Assembly: GCA_964599475.1 (NCBI GenBank)
Contig: CAZRFU010000016.1
Span: 17,619 to 81,618 of the forward strand
Reading direction: 5' to 3'
DNA: 64,000 bases
Origin: an uncultured Thermoanaerobaculia bacterium
GTDB lineage: Bacteria > Acidobacteriota > Thermoanaerobaculia > Multivoradales > CAZRFU01
The translations under genes and the position numbers were made by a program. Positions 3,255 to 64,000 of this stretch are shown piece by piece (the stretch's first letter is position 1; every line of letters begins with the position of its first letter). The notes beneath the pieces are model-generated. The model was given only the letters and a program-made list of their open reading frames with translations, did not search any database and was not told the DNA's origin.

Positions 3255-4789
3255 TCACGGCACGGTGTTCGACCACGCCCAGGTGTTGCCAGTCTCGAAA
3301 CCGTCGGCAAAGAACCACGGGCAGCCGCCCGCGGTGTGCTCGACCGAGCCCATGTCGTTGGTGCCGTTGCCCTGTGGCCGCAACACGCCACGCTGATCCA
3401 TGAAGGTATTGCCGCCCGCGAGAGGGATCCCAGCGTCGATCGCCGGGCTGCTCGGGCTGAGATTGTGGCTGCGGGTGAGCTCCTCGGGGATCCCGACCGG
3501 GCAGGAAAAGCCGAGGGGCAGGATCTGGGCGTCGGTCTCGGGTTTGTTGCCGTTGGTCGCAAGCTCGCCACAGCTGATCCCAGACCACAGGCTCGCGCCG
3601 ATGTCCACTGCGGCGCCGCCTGCGATCGAGCACTGGTCGCCGCTGTCCGTTGCGCTGTTCAGAGCCCAGATCACGTTGCGGGCGTGCAACGTCGAGCCGA
3701 TCGCCCCGGTCGTGACGCCACCGCCAACGGCGGCCTGATTGTTGGCGATCGTGGTCATCCGCAAGGTCAAGGCGCCTTCGTTGTGGATACCACCACCCGA
3801 GCCGGCGCTGGTGTTGCCGGAGACCGTCGTGTTCTCGAGCTGGAGGGTCCCGAGATTGGCGACGGCGCCACCTCTCGCGGCGGGATCGCTCGCGACGTTG
3901 CCCGAGAAGGTGGACTCGCGCTGGAGCGACGATGACCCCGCTGTGATGAAGAAGCCCCCTCCCTCGGCGGCAGCATTGTCGGCGACCGTATCCCGGCTGA
4001 GTGAAACGCCGGAGGCGTTCTGCAGCAACACGGCGCCGCCCTGGCCGGCCGCCACGTTGAGCACGAACGAGCTCAGATCCAGAAAGCCCGAGGCGCTCGT
4101 GGCACGAACCGCACCGCCATCGCCACCGGCGGTGTTGTTGTCGAACGAGGATCCAAACACCGCGAGCTGGGTCGTGTTGGCGACATCGAGCGCGCCGCCA
4201 TGGCCAACTGCGGTGTTGTTGGTAAGGATGGTGCGGCTCAGGTCCACCCGCCCGCCGATGGCGGCGATGGCTCCGCCGTCGCCGTTGGCGTGGTTGCCGG
4301 CAAGAGTGCTCCACAGAGCGTGGACCACGCCACCACTCGCGAGCACGGCGCCGCCACTCCCGGTGGAGGTGTTGTTGGCCAGGATGGCTCGGTCGAGCTC
4401 GAGGTCACCACCGGGCTCCACCACCCCGCTCCACCGCCCGCTGCAACGCCGTCGACGAGGAAGATCTCTCGCATCGTGGCGACCGCCGCAGCGGCGACCA
4501 CGAAGTGCCGCGTCGTGCCGCCACCCGACAGTGTCACCTTGTTGTCCCCATCGAAAACCACGAAGGCCGTGATCGGCTTGGCGGCGGTCAGGGTGATCAC
4601 GATCGGGTCGGGGCCACAGTCGAAGGTGATCGTGCCACCGCCGGCGTGCGCCGTCGCGATCGCGGCATCAAGGTGGGACTCGGTGCATCCTCCAGGCGAG
4701 CCGTCGCCGACGACGGCGTTGGCGCCGAGGACCGGAGGGACGGCGAGCAGCAAGCAGAGGGTGAGGCAAGGGAAGTCGCGAGGTTTCAT
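3255..4789 (-). CDS. Pmp-repeat (GGA[IVL]) right-handed parallel beta-helix secreted protein with CSLREA-like N-terminal motif and C-terminal DGFETGNTWAWS tag; reading frame broken near 4420-4432 (G-run), so possibly a pseudogene or sequencing error
   Basis: ORF 4238..4789 (signal peptide MKPRDFPCLTLCLLLAVPPVLGANA, motif GCTESHLDAAIATAHAGGGTITFDCG) and ORF 3255..4424 (NNTxxGxGGA repeats, tag FADGFETGNTWAWSNTVP*) align collinearly to the paralog at 4786..6309. The two frames join if one G is added to the GGGG run. Confidence 0.6.
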
Positions 4790-51537: not shown

Positions 51538-51948
51538 CTAGCCTTCCGGCTTCGGGTCGCCGCCGGCCTCGGAATCGCTCTCGGTGCCGTCCGCTTCGTC
51601 GACGATCTTGGGAGCGGCTCGGAAGACCGGAGTGAAACGCTCGCGGATGCCGTCGAGGGAGATGCTCTCGACGTAGTACCAATAGGCGCGGCGCGGATCG
51701 ATGGTGCGATCGACGAAGACGTAGGCCTGTGGTTCGTCGACGGTTCCGGCGCCGGGAATCGGCGTTTCGGTGAGGCGCTCGAACGGGCCTTCTTCGGCGT
51801 CGCCGCGGTAGACGTCGAAGCCGAAGTTCTCGACCTCACTCGCGGTCTTCCACTTGAGCGTGTTGGTGTACTCGGTCACCTCGTCTGCGACCGCCGAGGC
51901 GGCGCTCAGCAGCCCGAGCGCGAGCAGGGCCAGGAACTTGTTGCGCAT
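51538..51948 (-). CDS. small secreted protein (fibronectin-III-like)
   Basis: Signal peptide MRNKFLALLALGLLSAASAVA; ATGA-coupled to the upstream peptidase gene. Confidence 0.5.
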   Translation of the reverse strand: MRNKFLALLALGLLSAASAVADEVTEYTNTLKWKTASEVENFGFDVYRGDAEEGPFERLTETPIPGAGTVDEPQAYVFVDRTIDPRRAYWYYVESISLDGIRERFTPVFRAAPKIVDEADGTESDSEAGGDPKPEG

Positions 51949-54491
51949 CAGTTGCTCTCCTTGGGTGCCAGCTCGGCCACGGCCTCGGCTGGTGTTTCTC
52001 GAAGATCGAGCGCTCCGGCCGCGTCGCGCCTCGCCGCTTCGTTCCAGGCGTAGACCCCGACCCGCTCCGCCGAGATTGCCTGAGGCAGGCGCCATACGAC
52101 CGGGCTCGGATCCTGCAATTCCTCGCGCGCCAGCACATTCCCGCTCGCGTCGAAGGCTTCGAACAACACCCGCGTCCCGGGCTCTTGCCAGGGCACATCG
52201 ACGCGGATGTCGTCGGCGACGAGGGCCGGGTGCAGAGTGTCGGCCGGTCTCGCCAGCGGCAACGCGGGATCCCCGATCAGGTTGAACATCATCACGAAGG
52301 CCTTGTTGCGCGAGAACTCAGCCTTGGTCACCCGCAGGGCTTCGCCCAACGAGTCTTCCTCGAGCAGGCCATTCATCAGTCTCTCGCTGACCCGTTGCGA
52401 CGGCGAGTAGCGCCAGGAGGCCCCGAAGACTGCAATCGCGCCTCGATCCGGAAGTCGCAGGAAGCGCTCCCCGATCGAATCCGCGGTCGGGTGGTCAAAC
52501 GGCGCGGAGTAGCACGTCATGCTCAGGATCACGGGCAGCTTGTCGTTGGGCGCGAGCGCATCGAGGTCGTCGAGGGTGAAGAGATCGTGGTTCTTGCGCG
52601 GGTCGGGCGGCCCCGTGCGCCAGATGAAACGCCCGCCGTGGCCGACGAAGTGCACCATCAGCTGCCCCTCGTCGATCGCCTGGCGAATTGCGCCCTGGTG
52701 CAACTCGTTGGAGGCTTCCTCGGGCTTGGGGTAGATCTTCGACCCGCCGAGGCCGCGCTCGGCCATCGCGCCGGCAAGGTTGTCGGTCTGCCGCTGGAAC
52801 CCAGCCTCCTCGTTGACCAGCCACAAGACATGGCGGCGCCACGGCCCGACCGGCGGCCCGGCGAGATAACCACGGATCTTCGAGACGATCCCCCGCACCT
52901 CGTCCGGCTCGCTCACCGGCAGGCGACCGATCGCCATCTCCGGACTGCCGTCCTCGTCGAAGTCGACGAAGTAGTGGTCGGATGCGGCGTGGCCGTCGGA
53001 ACTTGCCCAGCGGTAGGTCGGGATCAGATTGCGATGGCCTAGGGTTGGTCGCCGCGGGTGTGGGGTCGCGGGAATCTTGTTGAAGCCCTCGCGCTCGAAT
53101 GTGGCCCAGGTCATGTCGGCGTAGCGCTGGTCGTCGAGCTCCTCGTTGCGAGCGTCCCAGCTCGCATCACCCACCAGCAGCACGAAGCGTGGCACGGGCG
53201 CAACCCAGGATGTCGCGGTGTGGTGCAGGAACGACCGAATCGCTTTGGGATCGACGACGCCGAAGGAGAACTCATCGAAGATCTCCTCGACATCGACGAC
53301 CTCGACACTCAGCCCGCGACGCCGATGGACATCGGCGAGGTGTTCGGTCTCGAGCCGCAGGCTCGGATGGGTGATCATCAGGTAGTCGGCCTGACGCGAA
53401 CGGCTGCGCAGATCCGAAGGCTGATCGAGCTCGACCACCGCGGGGCGGTGGAAGGCCCCGTCACGAACCACCCAGACCGAGGCTTCCGGGGTGCGAAACG
53501 TCACACCGAACTGCTCGCGACGCGGCACGCCCGCGGCACGCTGCGTGGCCCCGAAGACGGCGATCCGCTCCGCCTCCCGCACCATGAAGTCGAGCGATCG
53601 GCAGCTCTCGTCCGCGCGAGCAAAAAGCTCGCGCTGGGCGTATCGCACCGAGCGATCGTGCGGGTAGCTCAGCTCGATCCAGTTCAGCAGCGAGACGTCG
53701 ACGATCGGGTTGTCCTTCTCGTCCATGCGGCGGGGCGAGGTCACGCTGAGCTTCACCTGCTCCGGCAGCTCGGCCGCCGGGCGGCGCAGCACGAACTCGG
53801 CCAGCTCCTGACCCTCGAACTCGACTCGGGCCTGCTCGGCACCGTCGAGGGCAGCCGTGACGATGTGAGTCGGTTCCCCCTCCGCCAACCGCGGAGTCGA
53901 CCAGCCCCGCAGCTGACCGGTGATCGTCAGGGGCTGAGCAGACGAGCGATCGAGATCTGCCAGCTCGAGCGGGAGCTCGAACTGATCCTGGGGGAAAAAC
54001 GACACCCGCGACCACATCCACGGCTCGATGTCGCCGAGGCGCGGAGCAAACCGCAGGAGCAACCGGTCCTCCTCGAGATGCTGACGCACCTCGAGCGCAC
54101 AGGACTTGCCCGATGCTTTGGCGGGTACGTCGACGTAGCGCAACCCGCCACCACCGAGCCGGACCCAATAGACCGCCCACGCAGTCTCCTCGGCAAACCA
54201 GCTGCGCTCACCCGGCAGGTGCCGACCGACCAGCTCGATCGCATCACCCGGGCCAAAGAACCCGTCCTCGCCGCCGCGAACGTGGATCGGCACCGGCTCG
54301 CCCAGACTGTCGACGCCGAGCTCGTCGGTGGGGATCGGTTGGCCTTGCCACCCCGCCGCGGTCAGATCCTCGAAGCTCACGGCGTACACCCCGGACTCGC
54401 GCAGCAGCACCTTGAACGAGGGTGTCGCGGCGATGGCGACAGCGGCACTGACCCACGAGGTGACGGCGAAAGCGGCGACGGCGAGACGCAT
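51948..54491 (-). CDS. secreted peptidase C25 (gingipain)-like protein
   Basis: Signal peptide; HFVGHGG and SMTCYS resemble the C25 His/Cys catalytic motifs. Confidence 0.6.
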   Translation of the reverse strand: MRLAVAAFAVTSWVSAAVAIAATPSFKVLLRESGVYAVSFEDLTAAGWQGQPIPTDELGVDSLGEPVPIHVRGGEDGFFGPGDAIELVGRHLPGERSWFAEETAWAVYWVRLGGGGLRYVDVPAKASGKSCALEVRQHLEEDRLLLRFAPRLGDIEPWMWSRVSFFPQDQFELPLELADLDRSSAQPLTITGQLRGWSTPRLAEGEPTHIVTAALDGAEQARVEFEGQELAEFVLRRPAAELPEQVKLSVTSPRRMDEKDNPIVDVSLLNWIELSYPHDRSVRYAQRELFARADESCRSLDFMVREAERIAVFGATQRAAGVPRREQFGVTFRTPEASVWVVRDGAFHRPAVVELDQPSDLRSRSRQADYLMITHPSLRLETEHLADVHRRRGLSVEVVDVEEIFDEFSFGVVDPKAIRSFLHHTATSWVAPVPRFVLLVGDASWDARNEELDDQRYADMTWATFEREGFNKIPATPHPRRPTLGHRNLIPTYRWASSDGHAASDHYFVDFDEDGSPEMAIGRLPVSEPDEVRGIVSKIRGYLAGPPVGPWRRHVLWLVNEEAGFQRQTDNLAGAMAERGLGGSKIYPKPEEASNELHQGAIRQAIDEGQLMVHFVGHGGRFIWRTGPPDPRKNHDLFTLDDLDALAPNDKLPVILSMTCYSAPFDHPTADSIGERFLRLPDRGAIAVFGASWRYSPSQRVSERLMNGLLEEDSLGEALRVTKAEFSRNKAFVMMFNLIGDPALPLARPADTLHPALVADDIRVDVPWQEPGTRVLFEAFDASGNVLAREELQDPSPVVWRLPQAISAERVGVYAWNEAARRDAAGALDLRETPAEAVAELAPKESN

Positions 54492-54574: not shown

Positions 54575-57500
54575 TCACACCCACTCGGCGCACAGCAGTT
54601 CCGCCTGGGCCAGCACCGTCTTGACCGCTTGGTCCTGGAGATCCGGCGGGTAGCCCCAACGATTGAGGATGCGTTTGACCATCACCCGCATGCGTGCGCG
54701 GGCGCTTTCGCGGACGGTCCAGTCGATGGTGGCGCTCTTCCTCACCTGGGTGATCAGCTCGGCGGCGATCGCGCGCAACTTCTCGTCACCCATCGCCTGC
54801 ACCGCGCTGTCGTTGGTGGCGAGCGCGTCGTAGAAGGCGATCTCGTCGTCGCTGAGACCGAGCGCTTCGCCGCGTTTCCCGGCGGCTTCGAGGTCCTTGG
54901 CGAGCTTGATCAGCTCTTCGATGACTTCCATCGTCGAGATCGCGCGGTTGTGGTACTTGTTCAGCGTTTCCTTGAGCTTTTCGCTGAAGACCTGGCTCTC
55001 GACCAAGTTGCGCTTGCCGCGCACCTTGAGCTCGTCTTCGAGCAGCTTGCGCAGGAGCTCGGCGGCGACGTTCTTGTGCTGCAGGCCGCGGACCTCGGCG
55101 AGGAACTGGTCGCTCAAGATCGAGATGTCGGGTTTCTGCAGACCGGCGGCGGTGAACACGTCGATCACTTGGCCGTCGGTGGTGATCGCCTTGCTCACCA
55201 ACTGGCGGATCGCCGCGTCGATCTGTTCGGGGGTCTTGCCGCTCCCTGAGCCACCCTTGGCGAAGGCCGCTTGCAGCGCCTGGAAGAACGACACGTCGTC
55301 GCGGATCGTCGTCGCCTCGTCGGTTGCCGCCGCGAGCGCGAAGGCACGCGAGAGCTCCATCACCACCCTGGCCCACCGTTGTTGACCGTCCGGCTGCGCC
55401 AGGATGTGCTCGCGGCCGGCGGGAATCAACGCGAGGCGTTCGCTCGGCGAGCCGCTGATCCAGCGGCTCCAATCGAAGCCGTTCAGCATCGAGCAGGCGA
55501 CCTCGTGCTTCTCGAGCATCACCGCAATCGCGGCAGCCGTGTCGAAGGTCGGATCACCCTTGCCGCCGCTTTCGGTGTAGGTCGCCAGTGCCCGTTTGAG
55601 CTGATCCGCGAGCCCGAGGTAGTCGACCACCAGGCCGCCGGGCTTGTCGCGAAACACCCGATTCACTCGTGCGATCGCCTGCATCAGGCCGTGGCCGTGC
55701 ATCGGCTTGTCGACGTACATGGTGTGCAGACACGGCGCATCGAAGCCGGTCAGCCACATGTCGCGCACGATCACGATGCGGAAGGGATCTTTGGCGTCTT
55801 TGAAGCGCGTCGCCATCCGCCGCCGACGGTCTTTGCTGCGGATGTGCGGTTGCCACGCAGGGCCGTCGTCGGCGCTGCCGGTCATCACCACCTTGACCAC
55901 ACAGCTGCGGTCCTTTTCGGCCTCGGCATCGTCGCCGACACTCGCCCATTCGGGGCGAAGCGCGATCAGCGCGTCGTAGAGGTCGACGCAGATGCGCCGG
56001 CTCATGCACACCACCATCGCCTTGCCGTCCATCGCCTCGAGGCGCTTCTCGAAGTGCGCCACCAAGTCCGCCGCGATCAACGCGATGCGTTTCGGGTCGC
56101 CGACCAAGGCTTCGAGCGCCGCCCACTTGCTCTTGAGCTTCTCGCGGTGGGTCGGCTCTTCGCCCTCGGTGATCTCGTCAAACTCGTCGTCGAGCTTGGG
56201 GACCTCGGCGGCGTTGAGGCTGAGCTTCGAGATCCGGCTTTCGTAGTAGATCGGCACCGTCGCCTGATCCGCCACCGCTCGCTGGATGTCGTAGATCGAG
56301 ATGTAGTCGCCGAACACCACCCGCGTGTTGGCGTCGGCGAGCTCGATCGGGGTGCCGGTGAAGCCGATGTAGCAGGCGTTCGGCAGCGCGTCGCGCAGGT
56401 TGCTCGCAAAGCCGTACGACAACGCGCCGGTCTTGGGGTTGACCTTGGCGCCGAAGCCGTATTGGCTGCGGTGTGCTTCATCGGCGATCACCACGATGTT
56501 CTGCCGCGCACTCAGCACCGGCATGGCTTCGCCCTGCTCCGGCAGGAACTTGTGAATGGTGGTGAAGACCACGCCGCCGCTCGCGACCGTCAGGAGCTCG
56601 CGCAGCTGCTCACGGCTGCCGGCCTGCACCGGCGTCTGCCCGAGCACGTCGGCGCAGCGCTGGAACTGGCCGAAGAGCTGGTCGTCGAGGTCGTTGCGGT
56701 CGGTCAACACCACCAGCGTCGGGTTCTGCATCACCGGGTGGCGTACCACTCGTGCGGCGAAGAAGAGCATCGAAAAGCTCTTGCCGCTGCCCTGGGTGTG
56801 CCACACCACCCCGGCGCGGCGGTCGCCCGGCTGGCCGCCGCGCATCCGCCCGGCCCAATAGGTGCCCGGCGTTTCCTTCGCCTCGTCGGCTCGCGCCAAC
56901 CCACTCGCCCGCACCGTCTCCTCGACCGCGGCGTTGACCGCGTGGAACTGGTGGTAGCCGGCGATGATCTTGTGCAGCGCCCCCGAGTCCGGATCCTCCT
57001 CGAACACGATGAAGTGCTGCAGCAGCTCGAGGAAACGCCGCTGGTCGAACACTCCGCGGATCAACACCTCGAGCTCGAGCGCATTCGCCGGCGCGTCGCC
57101 CTCGCCGTCGACCGTGCGCCAGACCTTGAACCACTCCTGGTTCGCCGTGAGCGACCCCATCCGCGCCTGCAGTCCGTCACTCACCACCAACACCGCGTTG
57201 TACTGCAACAGCGACGGAATTTCGGCCTTGTAGGTCTGCACCTGCGCGTAGGCGCTCCAGATCGTCGCGTTTTCATCCGCCGCGTTCTTGAGCTCGATCA
57301 CGCCGAGCGGCAGCCCGTTGACGAACACCACCAGATCCGGCCGGCGGCTGTGCTGGCCCTCGATCACCGTGAACTGGTTCACCACCAGCCAGTCGTTGGC
57401 GGCGGAATCGGTGAAGTCGACCAGCCGCACGTGGTCGCCGGCGATCGACCCGTCCAGGCGGCGGTATTCCACCTGCACCCCGTTGCGCAGCAGCTTGTGG

Positions 57501-57763
57501 AAGGCACGGTTGGTCTGGATCAGCGACGGCGTGGCGATCCGCACCACCCGGCGCAGGGCATCCTCGCGAGCGTCCGCAGGGATCGTTGGGTTGAGCCGCG
57601 CAATAGCGTCCCGCAGCCGGCCGGCGAGCAAGACGTCGCCAAACGAATCCCTCTCCGCCGCCGGTTCGCCCGGCGCCAGGTGTGGCCCGTGGCCGACGGC
57701 GTAGCCGAGACCAGCAAACCAGTCGAGGGCGGCGGATTCGACGATGGATTCGTCGAGACTCAT
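54575..57763 (-). CDS. hsdR: Type I restriction enzyme R subunit (intact)
   Basis: 1062 aa; N-terminus [21 protein letters not shown]; SF2 helicase motifs (GSGKS, DEAH). Confidence 0.9.
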
Positions 57764-57766
57764 CGG

Positions 57767-58219
57767 CTAGTCCCACACATACCGCTCGTCGAACTCGATG
57801 CCATACTTCTTCAGGAGGCGGCGGTACTCCTCTTGGAACGAGATCTTGCGATGATGCTGCGCCTGGCCGGCGAGGTATTTCTCGAGAGCAGCGCGATGGG
57901 AAGGACTGAGCGAAAACGCTCCGTAGCCGCTCTGCCAGTGAAAGTCCTGCGAGCCTGGGGCCTTGGATTTGAGCCACTTCGTCGATCCGGTCTTGATGAC
58001 CTGCACCAGGTCGGCCAGCGCCACCGTTCTCGGGTGCGCGACGAGGAGGTGGATGTGGTCCGCCACCGATCCCGCCGCCAGCAGCGTGCCCTGGTGGTTC
58101 AGGATGATGCCGCCGATGTAAGCGTGGAGCTCGTCGCGGATGTCGTCAGCCAGGCGCGGTTCGCGGTTCTTGGTCGAAAAGACCAAATGGACGAGGATCT
58201 GCGCGAGGGACTGTGGCAT
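57767..58219 (-). CDS. IS200/IS605-family Y1 (HUH) transposase, REP-associated (RAYT-like)
   Basis: MPQSLAQILVHLVFSTKNREP...HIHLLV...SGYGAFS (HuH and Tyr motifs); flanked by REP palindromes; stop lies 3 nt from the hsdR start. Confidence 0.75.
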   Translation of the reverse strand: MPQSLAQILVHLVFSTKNREPRLADDIRDELHAYIGGIILNHQGTLLAAGSVADHIHLLVAHPRTVALADLVQVIKTGSTKWLKSKAPGSQDFHWQSGYGAFSLSPSHRAALEKYLAGQAQHHRKISFQEEYRRLLKKYGIEFDERYVWD

Positions 58220-58289
58220 GGCAAGCAAGCGCTCCGGCGTTTTCGGCCGAGTCTATCCGTCCCGACGGGCGCGGGTCCGCAAGTTGGCG

Positions 58290-58800
58290 ATGGTCGCGCT
58301 CCGGGGCCCCAACGGGGCCCAATGAGATAGCCCAGGGCAACGCCCTGGGTAGGCAAGCCCCCGTCCCTTCCCAAGCCCTGAAAGGGCGAAACATCCCTCC
58401 GCGACGATCCTGCGCCGCAACCGCCCCGGAGTTCCGCCCTTTCAGGGCTCGGAACCAATGGGGGGTGCCGCGGTACCCAGGGTGTCGCTTCGCTCTACCC
58501 TGGGCTATCTCATCTCGCCCCTTTGGGGCTTCGGATCGGCAGCCCGGCACCGGCGGGGCACCAGTGGATCGCCCCAACGACCGGCCCGCGATGCAGCACC
58601 CCGCCGTCGGGTCCCCGTGGCCCCAACCGGCACAGGTGGATCGCCCCAACGCCCGCCAGTGGCACGGCACCGCACGGATGCTCGGCTCCGGGGCCCCAAC
58701 GGGGCCCAATGAGATAGCCCAGGGCAACGCCCTGGGTTGGGCAAGCCGGTCCCATTCCCGAGCCCTGAAAGGGCGAAACATCCCAGGCCGACCCGGGTCC
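58290..58800. repeat. REP/BIME-like palindromic repeat cluster (about 4 units in both orientations, core CCCAGGG-loop-CCCTGGG hairpin within ...aatgagatagcccagggcaacgccctgggt...gccctgaaagggcgaaacatccc)
   Basis: Near-identical copies at 58296, 58683 and 60285; inverted copies at 58425 and 60420. Confidence 0.75.
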
Positions 58801-58832
58801 ACCGTCCGCGCGCGATCCACCGGCCCCACGGC

Positions 58833-60125
58833 CTACCCCGGATACGCCGTGGCCAACGCCCGCAAACCCAAAAAGCACACGCCGACGCCACCAACCGCCG
58901 CCACGCCGATCGCCGCCCTTGCATGGCGCCGCAACAAGCCCCATCGGCTCGCCCCGCCAACCGCCAAGGCACACGCCGGGCCGATGGCGGGTAAGACCAG
59001 CCGCCCCTGGGGCTGCCAATCCGAGCTGACCATGTACACCGCCAGCAGCACCAGCGCCGCCCCGATCCCGGACACCGCGGCGATCGCGACCACACCACGC
59101 TCCCGCCACGTGGCCCACACCCCGCCGACGATCGCCGCAGTCGGCAGCAGGAACCATGCGTAGGCGGCCACCGGCAAGTGAACGTTGAACCACCCGAGCT
59201 TGGCCCAGGTGCCGAGCCACAGGGTGACCATCCACCCCGGCTCGGTGATCAACGCGACCGCGGGCCCACCGTGCAACTTCCAGCTCGGCGGGACCGCATG
59301 CCCGAATGGGATGCCACGTGTCGCCTGAAACGCCAGAAGCCCCGCCAGCAGCGAGCTCCACAGTCCAACTCCCGCAGCGGCGACGCTGCGGCGCATCCGG
59401 GCGACACCGATCACCACCAGCGGCGCGAACAAGAAGGCCGCGGTCAATTTGGCCCACAGCGCCACTCCCGCGACGACGGCGGCAAGCAAGTACAGGCGAG
59501 TCGACCGGGTTTCCCCCGCACGCAAGAGCAGGGCAAAGCACACGGTCGAGAGGGCGATGGTGGCGGCGTCGTTGCTGAAGGTAGCGAACGAAAACACCAA
59601 CTGGGGCACCAGCAGGAACACCAGGAACACCGGCACCACCTCGACCGGCCTCCGGCCGGCCTGCCTCGACACCACTGCACACCCCCACAGCGCCGGCACG
59701 AACACCACCGCCCAGGCGACGTTCACCAACCGGGGCGCCCACCACCCCCGCCGGGGTTCCCCGTCGACATAGGGTTTGGGTGGCTGACTGAAATCGAAAT
59801 CCGCCGATCGGCGCAATGCCGGCAGCTCCGAATCCCCTCCCGCCACGCGGAGCGCCGCCGCCGCAGCGAGATAGGCAAGCGGCGGTTGGTGCAGCTCGTA
59901 GCTCACCTCGCCGGGTAGGGCAGGGACAACCGGCCCGCTCCCGGCGCGCGCCACCTCGCGCACGTATTCGAGATGCGCCGCCTCGTCCGGAGCTTCGCCG
60001 AGCGGCGTGACCCATGAATACGCCAGCGCCAGCACGACGAACGCAACACCGCCGAACGTTGCGAGCACTCGGAGTGGGCGCTCCGAGCTGGTGGTGGGTC
60101 TGGCGTCCGCTTGGTTCGGGGCCAT
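58833..60125 (-). CDS. polytopic membrane protein, GT-C-fold glycosyltransferase-like (ArnT/PMT/DUF2142-like, first-loop PDEAAH motif)
   Basis: 430 aa, about 10 TM, acidic motif after TM1; sits between the two REP clusters. Confidence 0.5.
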   Translation of the reverse strand: MAPNQADARPTTSSERPLRVLATFGGVAFVVLALAYSWVTPLGEAPDEAAHLEYVREVARAGSGPVVPALPGEVSYELHQPPLAYLAAAAALRVAGGDSELPALRRSADFDFSQPPKPYVDGEPRRGWWAPRLVNVAWAVVFVPALWGCAVVSRQAGRRPVEVVPVFLVFLLVPQLVFSFATFSNDAATIALSTVCFALLLRAGETRSTRLYLLAAVVAGVALWAKLTAAFLFAPLVVIGVARMRRSVAAAGVGLWSSLLAGLLAFQATRGIPFGHAVPPSWKLHGGPAVALITEPGWMVTLWLGTWAKLGWFNVHLPVAAYAWFLLPTAAIVGGVWATWRERGVVAIAAVSGIGAALVLLAVYMVSSDWQPQGRLVLPAIGPACALAVGGASRWGLLRRHARAAIGVAAVGGVGVCFLGLRALATAYPG

Positions 60126-60269
60126 GGTCGCGGGTTGCCTTTATGCAGCCAAGTGGTTTGTCGCCAGAAACATACATTGGCCTCCGGGTGGCAGGCTGCG
60201 CTACCGCCTAAACAAGCTCACTCAGGCCTTGCGTCGCTCGTGCAGGTCTTTGACGCCTTGTTGGAGGGC

Positions 60270-60512
60270 AGGCTCGGCACCGCACGGATGCTCGGCTCCG
60301 TGGCCCCAACGGGGCCCAATGAGATAGCCCAGGGCAACGCCCTGGGTGTCGGGCAAGCCCACCGACTCCCCGAGCCCTGAAAGGGCGAAACCTCCCGCGA
60401 CGGTTCGCCCCGCCCCCTCGGAATTCCGCCCGTTCAGGGCTCCGGACCTCCAGGGGTGCCGCTGTACCCAGGGTGTCGCTTCGCTCTACCCTGGGCTGTC
60501 TCATCTCGTGAG
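60270..60512. repeat. REP/BIME-like repeat cluster (one forward and one inverted unit) abutting the hsdR duplication junction at 60512/60513
   Basis: Same units as 58290..58800. Confidence 0.75.
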
Positions 60513-60514
60513 CT

Positions 60515-60903
60515 GGGTTCACCACCAACCAGTCGTTGGCGGCGGGATTGGTGAAGTCGACCAGCCGCACGTGGTCGCCGGCGATCGACCCGTCCGGCCG
60601 GCGGTATTCCACCTCCACGCCGTTGCGCAGCAGCTTGTGGAAGGCACGGTTGGTCTGGATCAGCGACGGCGTACCGATCCGCACCACTCGGCGCAGGGCA
60701 TCCTCGCGAGCGTCCGCAGGGATCGTTGGGTTGAGCCGCGCAATAGCGTCCCGCAGCCGGCCGACGAGCAACACCTCGCTGAACGAATCGCGCTCCGCCT
60801 CCGGTTCGCCGGGGGCGAGGTGAGGCCCGTGGGCGACGGCGTAGCCGAGACCGGCAAACCAGTCGAGGGCGGCGGATTCGACGATGGATTCGTTCAAGCT
60901 CAT
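60515..60903 (-). pseudogene. hsdR 5' fragment (first ~130 codons), a direct duplicate of 57374..57763; reads through into REP sequence
   Basis: Translation [26 protein letters not shown]...DWLVVN then diverges; nucleotide-level near identity with the intact hsdR 5' end. Confidence 0.8.
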
Positions 60904-62786
60904 TCGGCGGTTGACGTCTGGATGGGGCCGATCATCGTGGCTACCTGACCAACACCCTCGTCCGCCACGGCAGGAACGGCTGCTGGTGGCTCCGCGGCAA
61001 AGAACTTCTCCACCTCCTTGACTAGAGGTGCAAACCCGACAAAGGCATCATTCAGCGCCTGGCCGGAGAGCCCGCACACGTACCTTGCTAGCTTCCCTTT
61101 CGCGAAGGGCTTGAGTTGTCTAGTCAACAGCAAGAGTTCGTCCTTGCTAGCGTTCTTCGACCGACAGTAGTTCTCGAACGTGTCATCAAGTGCGGTGAAC
61201 TTGTTCAAGGCAACGGCTTCGGATCGCTCGATGAGCCACCCTTTCTGCTCGGCGTACCTCCAGACCTCGATGGGGAAGAGTTCTTCCAACGCTATCGGCA
61301 GCAGGAGGCCTTTTCTTGCTATTGCCACCAGAGCATGGGGCTTGTACGCCCCGAGGAGCAAGGCCTTGATTCTATGCCTTCCATTTTCGCGGAGGAACGC
61401 TTGATTCGAACTCTTGACACGGTCGTTGTTCACCACCGCGCTTTTTGCCTCGCGGCCCGCATCATCGTCGTCGAATAAGCCTAGTGCAAGATGCGAAGTT
61501 CGGCTGTGTGCCCAAGAAATGAGCATGTCCTTAACCCAGGGGGCTCCGGCCTGGTCTTCGCTTCGTACAGTCGCCCGTTCCAGGACAGTGGGGGCCAACA
61601 GCTCCAGGGCCCTCGTGAAGACCCGAGCATCGGATGTACCTTCGACGAAGAGAGCAGGGCTAGCGATGTGGTTGGTCCTTTGAAGGATCGCGAGCGCTCG
61701 CTCCCGACTCTCGACGGCCTCGGCAATCATCGGGGCAACGACCGGCATGAGGCCGACGTGTTCGTCAAGTTCATGCATCTCGTTTGAGGCCAGCGTTTTG
61801 ACCTGAGTGGCACCGTCCTCGCCACTGCCAGAGACGAGGAAGGGAGTCACTGTAGGTGAGGATCTGGCCAGCGAATAGAAAGCTGGCGAGTGCGTGGTAG
61901 CGAAAATCTGGATCTCCTTGCTGTAGGCGACGCACTCGCTCGCAAGTTCGGCCGCCTTGAGCATTTCAAGATTGTTCTCAGGCTCCTCGAAGCCCCAAAT
62001 CGTCTGGACCTGCGGACTACCCTTGACTCGCCGTGTTCGCGACTGCTGGGCTAGGTAGTGCAGGAGGATCGGAATGTGGCGCGCCTTGACTCCGTCGCCC
62101 CGGAGGCCCAGCGGCACTCCGAGCGGGCCGTCCGATTGGAACTCAAGCCGCGAGAACAGCTCGCGAAGGTCGGCGGGTAGCTGGATCGTGCTCTTGATGC
62201 CAAGCTTGGCTTCGATCTCAGCAAGGGCGGCCTGCGTCTTCTCGTTGATGGTGGAGGTGAAGCCGCCAGAAGCCGCGCGAATGTCCGCGGCGACCGTGCC
62301 GACGAGGACATCGTGAAGGCCCCGAAGTAGTGTCTGGAAGTAGTCGCTGCCTTTCACGGCAGGTACGTACTCGAACCGCACGGAGTTGAGGAATGCCGGA
62401 ACCTTTGATCGCGGCTTGAGTTGGCTCCCGTCGAGGTGTCGAAGCTCGTTTCCAGGCTCATGGTGCCCGCCAGAACGCCACACCTTTCGCCAGAGGATCT
62501 CGGACGCGTCGTAGGAGGGGGGGAGCCTCATAGTTAGAGTTACACGAACCTCTTTGGCCTTGTTCGACGGGGTCCTCGCGTGTTTGCTGAAGTCGCGGTC
62601 AAACACGAAGGGGCTCGCGGCGGCAGTGCCGTTGAAGAACAAGTCGAGGGCACGAAGGATGTTCGATTTGCCGACATCGTTCAGGCCTACGAATAGATTG
62701 AGCCGGTTGGTCCGGAAGTCCTCGTTGAGGATGGAGCGGTAGTTCTGAATCCGGACAGACGTGATCTGCATTCCGTCGACCGCCAT
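60900..62786 (-). CDS. OLD-family ABC-ATPase + TOPRIM nuclease (OLD/PARIS-like), about 628 aa
   Basis: Start ATG 62786 after GAGGAG; N-terminus QITSVRIQNYRSI...VGLNDVGKSNILRALDLFF (AAA_15/OLD Walker A); ATTHSP; TOPRIM-like VEGTSDARVF and FDDDDAG; ATGA overlap with the hsdR fragment. Confidence 0.75.
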   Translation of the reverse strand: MAVDGMQITSVRIQNYRSILNEDFRTNRLNLFVGLNDVGKSNILRALDLFFNGTAAASPFVFDRDFSKHARTPSNKAKEVRVTLTMRLPPSYDASEILWRKVWRSGGHHEPGNELRHLDGSQLKPRSKVPAFLNSVRFEYVPAVKGSDYFQTLLRGLHDVLVGTVAADIRAASGGFTSTINEKTQAALAEIEAKLGIKSTIQLPADLRELFSRLEFQSDGPLGVPLGLRGDGVKARHIPILLHYLAQQSRTRRVKGSPQVQTIWGFEEPENNLEMLKAAELASECVAYSKEIQIFATTHSPAFYSLARSSPTVTPFLVSGSGEDGATQVKTLASNEMHELDEHVGLMPVVAPMIAEAVESRERALAILQRTNHIASPALFVEGTSDARVFTRALELLAPTVLERATVRSEDQAGAPWVKDMLISWAHSRTSHLALGLFDDDDAGREAKSAVVNNDRVKSSNQAFLRENGRHRIKALLLGAYKPHALVAIARKGLLLPIALEELFPIEVWRYAEQKGWLIERSEAVALNKFTALDDTFENYCRSKNASKDELLLLTRQLKPFAKGKLARYVCGLSGQALNDAFVGFAPLVKEVEKFFAAEPPAAVPAVADEGVGQVATMIGPIQTSTAE

Positions 62787-62791
62787 TCTGG

Positions 62792-64000
62792 TTACTCCTC
62801 GAAGAAGGCTCTTCCACCAAGTAGTTCTGGCAACAAGGCTTCGCGCTGTCCGGCGAGAAGGTGACCTTCGGCCGCACGGCTCTCTGCCATGGCCAACAGG
62901 GGGCTTACCCTGTCGGTGAATGCGTGGGCCAAAGCGGTCGGTGGAATCAGGCACGGCAGGGCGAAGGCATCTTCGGGCCTAACGCGCTGATGGCTCCCCG
63001 TCGTGCCAGTCACGAGTGAGGCATAGGCGGTTGAGAACGGTTGGCTTGTGAAGAGCGAATAGAGAAACTCACTCGAAGCGCTAGTGGCTGGCTCGACCAC
63101 GATGAATTCGGTCGAGCAGACGGACGGGCGAGAACCGTGGAGCTTGGCAGGGAACCACACGCGAGGGATGTGAGGGTTGAGCTTGGACAACAGCACGGCG
63201 CCTTGGGGAACCGCGAACTTGTTGCTTCGGATGGCTGCCCCAAGCTCTACCTTCGGTTTCCGGCCATCGTCGAAGGCAGGGAGGCTGTAGTGGTCGAACT
63301 GCTCGCCCGGGCACAGGCCTGGGTTCAACGAGGCCTTTCCAACGGTCGCCAACTCGGAAAGGGGGCCGGTTCTCCACCCGCGTGGAATCCGCCCGAGGTC
63401 GGAGTCTTGGAAGGAGTCGGGGAAGAGGGCGGCGGTTTCGGGGTCGAGGCCGGGGGGGTGGCGGCCGTCGAGTTTGGCGCGGACGGGGTCGAAGTCGACG
63501 AACCAGCTCTGGAAGAGCGCCCGCGCCATGGCCTCGAGGGTGGCGTTCATGCGGCGGTTGAGCTCGATCTTGTCGTCGAGGGCGCCGAGGGTCTCCGCGA
63601 TCAGCCTCTGATGACCGATGGGCGGCACAGTGATCTTTAGTCGGCGTTGGTCGGTAAGGCTCAGGTAGGGGGCCATGTCCGTTGAGGCCTTCATCCCGGA
63701 GAGCTGCTCGCTGAACTCGCGCCCGCAGGCCCAGTAGCGCAGGAACCCGCTGTCCAGACGATCAAGGTCGCGACTTCGCCAGTAGCTCAGGTGGGGCGAA
63801 TAGACGAAGGGAGGCATTCGTGGAGTAACGAACGAGGTTCGACCAGTGCTGTTGCCTTTCGTCGTGATGATCGTGTCGCCGACGCGGGACATCTTCGGTC
63901 GCACCTTTTCGAAGAGGTGCTCGTGGAAATGCTCAACCCCAGAGAAGTCGATGTGGCTGTCAGTGACGTGGCCGGCACGAAGGAAGATTGGACCGTTGCC
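62792..64000 (-). CDS. hsdS: Type I R-M specificity subunit HsdS, 5'-partial (continues beyond window end)
   Basis: Central conserved region LTDQRRLKITVPPIGHQRLIAETLGALDDKIELNRRMNATLEAMARALFQSWFVDFDPV; frame stays open upstream of 63904 to position 64000. Confidence 0.8.
   Translation of the reverse strand, partial: GNGPIFLRAGHVTDSHIDFSGVEHFHEHLFEKVRPKMSRVGDTIITTKGNSTGRTSFVTPRMPPFVYSPHLSYWRSRDLDRLDSGFLRYWACGREFSEQLSGMKASTDMAPYLSLTDQRRLKITVPPIGHQRLIAETLGALDDKIELNRRMNATLEAMARALFQSWFVDFDPVRAKLDGRHPPGLDPETAALFPDSFQDSDLGRIPRGWRTGPLSELATVGKASLNPGLCPGEQFDHYSLPAFDDGRKPKVELGAAIRSNKFAVPQGAVLLSKLNPHIPRVWFPAKLHGSRPSVCSTEFIVVEPATSASSEFLYSLFTSQPFSTAYASLVTGTTGSHQRVRPEDAFALPCLIPPTALAHAFTDRVSPLLAMAESRAAEGHLLAGQREALLPELLGGRAFFEE

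Follow-up and report, generated by a model that had tools for sequence, protein, structure and literature searches.

OLD-family nucleases are classed by their genetic context, as an isolated gene or in association with a helicase, a retron or PARIS; those of Class 1 are said to stand alone, away from other defence genes (PMC10568477). Broad phage defence by single-gene OLD proteins is listed in reviews among the unresolved questions (PMC10568477). BREX, DISARM and Type I restriction–modification (R-M) systems often contain embedded genes, and defence by HEC-04, which lies in the R-M-like Hma system, requires both its Walker A and its TOPRIM metal sites (bioRxiv 10.1101/2024.01.29.577857); IbfA has been reported as a HEC-04 homologue, and TgvAB, which lies within a Type I operon, has been characterised by experiment (PMC11411939). 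Here we describe a gene, named gene X, that lies directly after hsdS in a Type I locus of an uncultured Thermoanaerobaculia bacterium, within a stretch of 64,000 nucleotides (GenBank assembly GCA_964599475.1, contig CAZRFU010000016.1, positions 17,619 to 81,618), hereafter called the window. We consider it likely that gene X encodes a self-contained OLD-type phage-defence nuclease which is co-expressed with the R-M operon and occupies a hot spot between hsdS and hsdR.

Gene X and its junctions

Gene X is an open reading frame (ORF) of 628 amino acids on the minus strand at 60900..62786, recovered from the ORF listing and translation of the window at the same position as in an earlier reading of the DNA letters alone (the original prediction). 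A homologue search over 5.8 billion proteins gave 353 matches, down to about 30% identity, most of them of about 590 amino acids and aligned across more than 90% of the query, and since these homologues are full-length, gene X is clearly a real gene. The stop codon of hsdS (TAA, 62792-62794) is separated from the ATG of gene X (at 62786, MAVDGMQITSVRIQNYRSI) by the five nucleotides CCAGA, in agreement with the gap predicted, while the TGA stop codon of gene X shares nucleotides with the start codon of the following ORF (ATGA, 60900-60903). The coupling to hsdR that had been proposed is therefore present as an overlap, although its partner is a truncated 5′ fragment and not an intact hsdR. A promoter and terminator scan returned no promoter-like sites and fewer terminator-like sites than the shuffled expectation. 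The GC content is 0.58–0.62 over gene X together with the 3′ half of hsdS (60800-63400) and 0.66–0.72 in the surrounding DNA, which agrees with the view that the cassette formed by hsdS and gene X was acquired horizontally. The features of the gene and of its product are as follows.

60900..62786, minus strand: gene X including its stop codon, predicted OLD-family ABC ATPase–TOPRIM nuclease (ORF, 353 homologues, full-length model)
61782..62786, minus strand: N-terminal ABC ATPase domain, about residues 1-335 (Pfam AAA_15 and AAA_21; invariant motifs)
62664..62687, minus strand: Walker A (P-loop) codons G34 to S41, with K40 at 62667-62669; invariant in 31 aligned homologues
60987..61670, minus strand: predicted C-terminal TOPRIM and helical nuclease region, about residues 373-600
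61629..61643, minus strand: TOPRIM glutamate motif E382-G383-T-S-D386 (VEGTSD); E382, G383 and D386 invariant
61464..61472, minus strand: TOPRIM DxD codons D439-D440-D441; D439 and D441 in at least 90% of sequences
61284..61286, minus strand: codon of E501 (EELFP motif), candidate metal-B ligand; invariant, with the spacing of BpOLD E508
61098..61100, minus strand: codon of K563, candidate catalytic lysine of the helical subdomain; invariant, with the spacing of BpOLD K562

ATPase domain and overall fold

Pfam searches matched the gene X protein to AAA_15 (1.5e-19), the family that the original prediction had proposed to look for, and to AAA_21 (2.9e-10), and all of the motifs on which that prediction was built were found in the translation (IQNYRSI, GLNDVGKSNIL, TTHSP, VEGTSD and FDDDDAG). 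Conservation was evaluated in an alignment of 31 homologues with 33–63% identity, in which the Walker A residues G34, N36-D37 and G39-K40-S41 are invariant, as are R229-G230-D231-G232, the Walker B-type pair E267-E268 and H299 of TTHSP (H-loop). Secondary structure places a helical insert in the ATPase domain at about residues 147-251. The AlphaFold2 model of the full protein had a predicted local distance difference test score (pLDDT) of 83, and when it was compared with the PDB by Foldseek the top matches, which cover both domains, were GajA (1.7e-16) and the OLD protein of Thermus scotoductus (TsOLD, 8.9e-16), together with the OLD nuclease of retron Eco8. In a full-length sequence profile search of the PDB, OLD-family chains likewise ranked first (GajA, 9e-11; TsOLD, 1e-9; also Eco8 OLD); for the Class 1 proteins, such as TsOLD, the sequence similarity was confined to approximately 80 N-terminal residues. 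NCBIfam gave sub-threshold N-terminal matches alone, to the retron Eco8 effector, MADS3 and RecF.

A divergent TOPRIM domain at the C terminus

The C-terminal 303 amino acids gave nothing at E<=10 with either Pfam or PADLOC, and hence no DUF4435 or AriB match. The assignment of this region to TOPRIM is supported by structure prediction and fold searches, and not by hidden Markov models (HMMs): a separate model of residues 366-602 reached a pLDDT of 95.6 and a predicted template modelling score of 0.90, and the structural neighbours of the gene X protein were all defence nucleases, AriB being a weaker fold match for the C-terminal domain. The TOPRIM-like C terminus of the original prediction is thus upheld by structure, while the HMM searches that it had proposed for this part, including PF20469 and DUF4435, were empty. 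The C-terminal profile produced only non-significant, motif-level matches in the PDB, to a TOPRIM protein (1t6t, E 0.15) and to retron Ec67 (E 0.21), and the EELFP motif of gene X aligns weakly with EDLFP of the latter. Taken together, the model and fold matches indicate that the gene X protein is an OLD-family ATPase–TOPRIM nuclease, as predicted from structure, with a divergent TOPRIM domain that is missed by current HMM libraries.

In the OLD protein of B. pseudomallei (BpOLD), the metal-A ligands are E400, D455 and D457, the metal-B residues are E404 and E508, and K562 is the catalytic lysine (PMC6755086). We infer from the sequence that E382, D386, D439, D441, E501 and K563 of gene X correspond to BpOLD E400, E404, D455, D457, E508 and K562, respectively; D386, E501 and K563, which are invariant and spaced like the second-metal and lysine residues of BpOLD, would form a candidate site whose equivalence is by spacing.

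A profile of the C-terminal domain, run against 1.84 billion representatives, matched 749 clusters (50% identity). A Pfam scan of ten matches of different size revealed several fusion architectures beyond the type of about 590 amino acids to which gene X belongs, with the X-type TOPRIM domain joined to longer ABC ATPases, to a STAND (NB-ARC/NACHT-like) NTPase or to a REC-like domain, the last in proteins of about 365 amino acids. These variant fusions (P0160 and P0166, about 365 amino acids; P0177, 1250 amino acids; P0185, P0192 and P0221, 830–930 amino acids) included one weak DUF3226 match and one weak Toprim_2 match. Varied fusion partners are the pattern expected of a modular immune effector nuclease, and the result suggests that the X-type TOPRIM may be an unrecognised modular effector-nuclease domain family.

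These data also bear on the PARIS part of the original prediction, according to which the protein was OLD/PARIS-like. If gene X were a fusion of AriA and AriB, it would sense Ocr directly and cut tRNA-Lys. Merged ariAB genes are known (PMC10802454), the motifs VEGxxD and DxD are like those of an AriB-type TOPRIM domain, and the best PADLOC match of the gene X protein was the AriA model (3.4e-20). However, this match spans the P-loop and Walker B regions only, and the AriA model is nearly equal in length to Pfam AAA_15 (373 vs 374 positions). When the P-loop was removed, the remaining matches were restricted to the Walker B region of the HEC-01A/B, AriA, GajA and ATPase-Toprim_I-B models. Furthermore, the C-terminal domain lacks a DUF4435 or AriB match, and the PDB profile search retrieved GajA, TsOLD and Eco8 OLD, with no AriA at E<=0.01. 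A merged PARIS is accordingly highly improbable. Membership of PARIS was rejected on the generic, AAA_15-type nature of the AriA match, the missing DUF4435 and the weaker fold match of AriB, whereas the OLD-like character of the protein is borne out by its fold, profile and motifs.

Close orthologues share the hsdS–hsdR slot

The original prediction had placed gene X in the hsdS–hsdR position that PrrC holds and had asked whether the insertion recurs in orthologous Type I loci. All five of the close orthologue loci with readable context (54–64% identity) occupy the hsdS-X-hsdR slot, as does gene X in the window, where the downstream hsdR is a fragment; in L081 and L082 it is intact. The flanks of the P0004 locus were ambiguous. 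Truncated copies of the 5′ end of hsdR are designated hsdR′ below.

L081: hsdS, X, intact hsdR
L082: hsdM, hsdS, X, intact hsdR
L002: hsdM, hsdS, X, hsdR′ (44 codons), TIR protein, RhuM-like fragment, deaminase/HATPase_c_4, intact hsdR
L001: X, hsdR′ (61 codons), deaminase/HATPase_c_4, then the contig end
L086: hsdS, X, hsdR′ (13 codons), SLFN_AlbA_2/HATPase_c_4, a second hsdR′ piece, intact hsdR

In three of the five (L001, L002 and L086), X is followed by 5′ scars of hsdR and by other cassettes. Related loci stack candidate defence cassettes in this interval, with TIR, cytidine-deaminase/HATPase_c_4, SLFN_AlbA_2/HATPase_c_4 and RhuM-family members (L002:4927-7885, L086:2842-4251, L045:12077-13093), and the hsdS–hsdR interval of such loci behaves like a hot spot at which one defence cassette can replace another.

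Truncated 5′ copies of hsdR after X were found in four independent loci, with lengths of 132 codons in the window, 44 in L002 (4457-4588), 13 in L086 (2603-2641, with the second piece at 4337-4477) and at least 61 in L001 (1824-2006). Wherever an intact hsdR was present, the fragment was closest to that resident gene, with identities of 94% (window), 88% (L002) and 95% (second piece of L086). The slot cassettes appear to be exchanged by recombination at the 5′ end of hsdR, with the truncated copies left as scars, and the order X, hsdR′ (codons 1 to n), cargo and hsdR would fit a single-crossover (Campbell-type) integration of circular DNA bearing a 5′ segment of hsdR. The recurrence of these scars hints at how embedded defence cassettes are swapped or accumulate.

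Wider family context and alternative readings

A wider survey covered 80 homologue loci of GTDB species representatives with 30–63% identity. Approximately 15–18 of the 80 (about 20%) adjoin Type I genes, and hsdS lies directly upstream of the X homologue in 9 of 72 loci. The Type I-linked loci comprise at least three HsdR families (T1RH-like_C, EcoEI_R_C and EcoR124_C) and varied arrangements (M-S-X-R, R-..-S-X-M and M-S-..-R-X). Clustering of the neighbours of the 80 loci revealed no conserved partner gene, Type I R-M genes being the sole recurrent neighbours; Type III res, BrxL, AlwI, EcoRII and SIR2 were also present in surveyed loci. Four homologues at 43–45% identity (L003 and L083-L085) had no R-M genes nearby, and homologues at this level stand alone beside genes such as ligA, dnaA and metK, suggesting that the protein can work without HsdMSR. 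The closest relative is from a Planctomyces metagenome-assembled genome, and PSCyt2/PSD1 genes occur on a related contig, a pattern that by itself would point to a planctomycete as the probable source.

This distribution bears on whether gene X acts as an R-M guardian in the manner of PrrC, as the original prediction suggested. In such a scheme the protein would be bound and silenced by HsdM2S(R2), an anti-restriction protein (Ocr-, ArdA- or Stp-like) would free it, and its TOPRIM domain would cut tRNA or DNA and abort the infection. The slot is that of prrC, the coupling is tight on both sides (5 nucleotides to hsdS and the ATGA overlap), the entire subclade of 54–64% identity retains the slot, and the family has entered Type I operons of different HsdR families repeatedly, mostly right after hsdS. 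Moreover, relatives respond to anti-defence, PARIS to Ocr, PrrC to Stp and P2 Old to RecBCD inhibition, and the structurally similar TOPRIM domains of Eco2 and AriB cleave tRNA. On the other hand, about 80% of the 80 loci are not beside Type I genes and the 43–45% relatives lack nearby R-M genes, which weakens the case for a physical wiring to the Type I enzyme. The order of X relative to hsdM, hsdS and hsdR also differs among clades (S-X-R, S-X-M and R-X), in the window the partner in the coupling of X is a dead piece of hsdR, and the slot also carries unrelated cassettes (TIR, deaminase/HATPase_c_4, SLFN_AlbA_2 and RhuM), so that co-residence does not imply interaction. We therefore regard this mechanism as unlikely for gene X. 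It is similarly doubtful that the 54–64% subclade is a dedicated guardian of HindI-like Type I enzymes, an OLD equivalent of PrrC that docks on HsdMS(R) or is under its control; if it were, the OLD proteins would gain a fifth class, embedded in R-M.

The family context was also considered for a housekeeping role, in which gene X would encode a repair or recombination ATPase–nuclease of the RecF/SbcC/YbjD kind, carried as a passenger in the R-M locus and having no part in defence. Weak matches to RecF, Rad50, SMC_N and DUF2813 (YbjD) point in this direction, as does the vicinity of some homologues to ligA, dnaA or metK. In contrast, the distribution of the family is patchy, as in horizontal gene transfer, and the GC content of gene X (about 0.58–0.62) is below that of its flanks (0.66–0.70); R-M and defence neighbours are strongly enriched, STAND-NTPase fusions of the kind typical for immune proteins contain the TOPRIM domain as well, and defence nucleases make up all of the structural neighbours. 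This makes a housekeeping function very unlikely.

Organisation of the operon in the window

The other genes and repeats of the operon in the window are the following.

62792..64000, minus strand: hsdS, Type I specificity subunit, 5′ end beyond the window (Pfam Methylase_S; PADLOC Specificity_I, 1.4e-67)
60508..60903, minus strand: hsdR′, 5′ fragment of hsdR of about 132 codons, coupled to gene X (Pfam HSDR_N, residues 3-129 only)
57764..60507, no strand assigned: insert between hsdR′ and intact hsdR, with repetitive extragenic palindromic (REP)-like repeats, a DUF2142/PMT_2 gene and a RAYT gene
58833..60125, minus strand: DUF2142/PMT_2 membrane-protein (glycosyltransferase-like) gene (Pfam), bracketed by REP-like repeats
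57767..58228, minus strand: RAYT/IS200-like Y1 transposase gene (Pfam)
54575..57763, minus strand: intact hsdR, 1062 amino acids, HindI-like Type I restriction subunit (Pfam full length; PADLOC REase_I, 1132 bits)

The frame of hsdS is open up to the end of the window, and hsdM lies outside it. The hsdR′ fragment (396 nucleotides) is 93–94% identical at the nucleotide level to the start of the intact hsdR (60508-60903 vs 57368-57763) and breaks off exactly at a REP-like repeat (60453-60508). The intact gene, located 3.1 kb further downstream, contains HSDR_N, SWI2_SNF2, T1R_D3-like and T1RH-like_C domains, and its ATG is preceded by the RAYT stop codon at a distance of 4 nucleotides. The DUF2142/PMT_2 gene is an unusual, non-defence cargo for the hsdS–hsdR slot. 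It is flanked by copies of a REP-like palindromic repeat (58298-58397, 58685-58784 and 60295-60394), close to the RAYT gene, with D3/D5 repeat copies at 58421-58517 and 60413-60508; the repeats comprise the families D1, D3 and D5 and inverted pairs, a core of 29 nucleotides occurs three times in the window (none expected), and one REP-like copy is the breakpoint of the hsdR fragment. A large Peptidase_C25 (gingipain-like) gene (51948-54491, minus strand), unrelated to the finding on gene X, lies directly downstream of the intact hsdR.

Proposed function and significance

We favour the reading of gene X as a self-contained defence nuclease within an R-M operon. Its N-terminal ABC ATPase would serve as a sensor or gate, probably dimerising via the helical insert, and its C-terminal two-metal TOPRIM nuclease as the effector. 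Gene X is presumably co-transcribed with hsdM and hsdS of a HindI-like Type I operon, in which case it would add a second defensive layer, expressed together with the R-M enzyme. An infection cue (in characterised relatives, a phage protein or a lost host function) would lead the ATPase to license the TOPRIM site, and cutting of nucleic acid would then block phage replication or abort the infection. As substrate, DNA appears slightly more likely, because the closest folds (BpOLD, TsOLD and GajA) cut DNA, and tRNA is a real alternative, because the TOPRIM domains of Eco2 and AriB cut tRNA.

Several observations weigh against this interpretation. The steady placement of the close subclade behind hsdS could mean functional coupling rather than mere co-residence, and the presence of several family members among housekeeping genes leaves room for a role outside defence. 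None of the PADLOC 2.0 defence HMMs extends past the generic ATPase motifs of the protein, and the equivalence to BpOLD residues rests on spacing and conservation rather than on residue-level superposition. In addition, the operon is disrupted downstream of gene X, which renders its expression and selection in this genome uncertain.

The suggestion in the original prediction that a single-polypeptide version in this slot had not been described is not supported or is overstated, since both merged ariAB genes (PMC10802454) and the embedded HEC-04 fusion (bioRxiv 10.1101/2024.01.29.577857) have been published. As the overall design is already in print, gene X is a good candidate defence gene, and neither a new principle nor a surprise. 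In the literature we found no paper on this particular family in the hsdS–hsdR slot, and what seems to be undescribed is this branch of OLD proteins, which falls outside the PADLOC 2.0 and Pfam TOPRIM models, together with its Type I-embedded subclade. Gene X is a member of an uncharacterised and fairly large OLD branch whose nuclease domain is recognised by neither Pfam nor PADLOC 2.0.0, and it bears on the question of phage defence by single-gene OLD proteins. The subclade in the PrrC slot offers a test case for OLD-type proteins as R-M guardians or as hot-spot passengers.

Comparison with known systems

The TOPRIM domain of retron Eco2 (Ec67), which cleaves tRNA, has the motifs PTIxxEGKTD and E(E/D)LFP in common with gene X, but the sequences are not significantly similar (E about 0.2) and the domain is part of a reverse-transcriptase fusion, caged by multicopy single-stranded DNA (msDNA), instead of being carried on an ABC ATPase. 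PARIS (AriA and AriB, or merged AriAB), whose logic is anti-anti-restriction, likewise combines an AAA_15/21-type ABC ATPase with a TOPRIM effector; gene X differs in lacking the DUF4435 signature, and PARIS usually resides in P4 or prophage hot spots.

PrrC of the EcoprrI Type IC locus shares with gene X the hsdS–hsdR slot, the combination of an N-terminal ABC-type NTPase with a C-terminal nuclease, and the concept of an R-M guardian. The effector fold of gene X is, however, TOPRIM and not the anticodon-nuclease domain of PrrC and RloC, and no PrrC model was among the PADLOC matches listed for gene X. While PrrC occurs almost only within Type I loci, such embedding applies to only about 20% of the loci surveyed for the gene X family. 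HEC-04 and IbfA resemble gene X as one-gene ABC ATPase–TOPRIM fusions nested in a restriction-type operon, although the host system of HEC-04 is Hma and that of gene X is Type I R-M; the HEC-04 model was not among the PADLOC matches of gene X after removal of the P-loop, indicating that the two are not the same sequence family.

Among the OLD proteins, those of Class 2, or Gabija (BpOLD C-terminal region, PDB 6NK8; GajA, PDB 8U7I), have the same two-metal site that is predicted for gene X. A helicase resembling UvrD, PcrA or Rep (GajB) was neither beside gene X nor recurrent beside the 80 homologue loci, and membership of Gabija was rejected for want of a helicase partner. As regards the retron context of Class 3, gene X is flanked by hsdS and hsdR′, and no reverse transcriptase was among the most frequent neighbour families listed, a non-coding RNA not having been searched for. 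Class 1 proteins differ from gene X in that the Pfam OLD-like TOPRIM model misses the C-terminal domain of the latter, and in that gene X and its close subclade lie inside Type I R-M operons, whereas the homologues at 43–45% identity do fit the isolation described for this class. The Type I-embedded subclade fits none of the four context-based classes. In architecture, gene X matches Class 1 (P2 Old and TsOLD, PDB 6P74), being the same partnerless single polypeptide with an ABC ATPase containing a helical insert and a C-terminal TOPRIM domain, and the E / DxD / E / K catalytic pattern is kept in its family.

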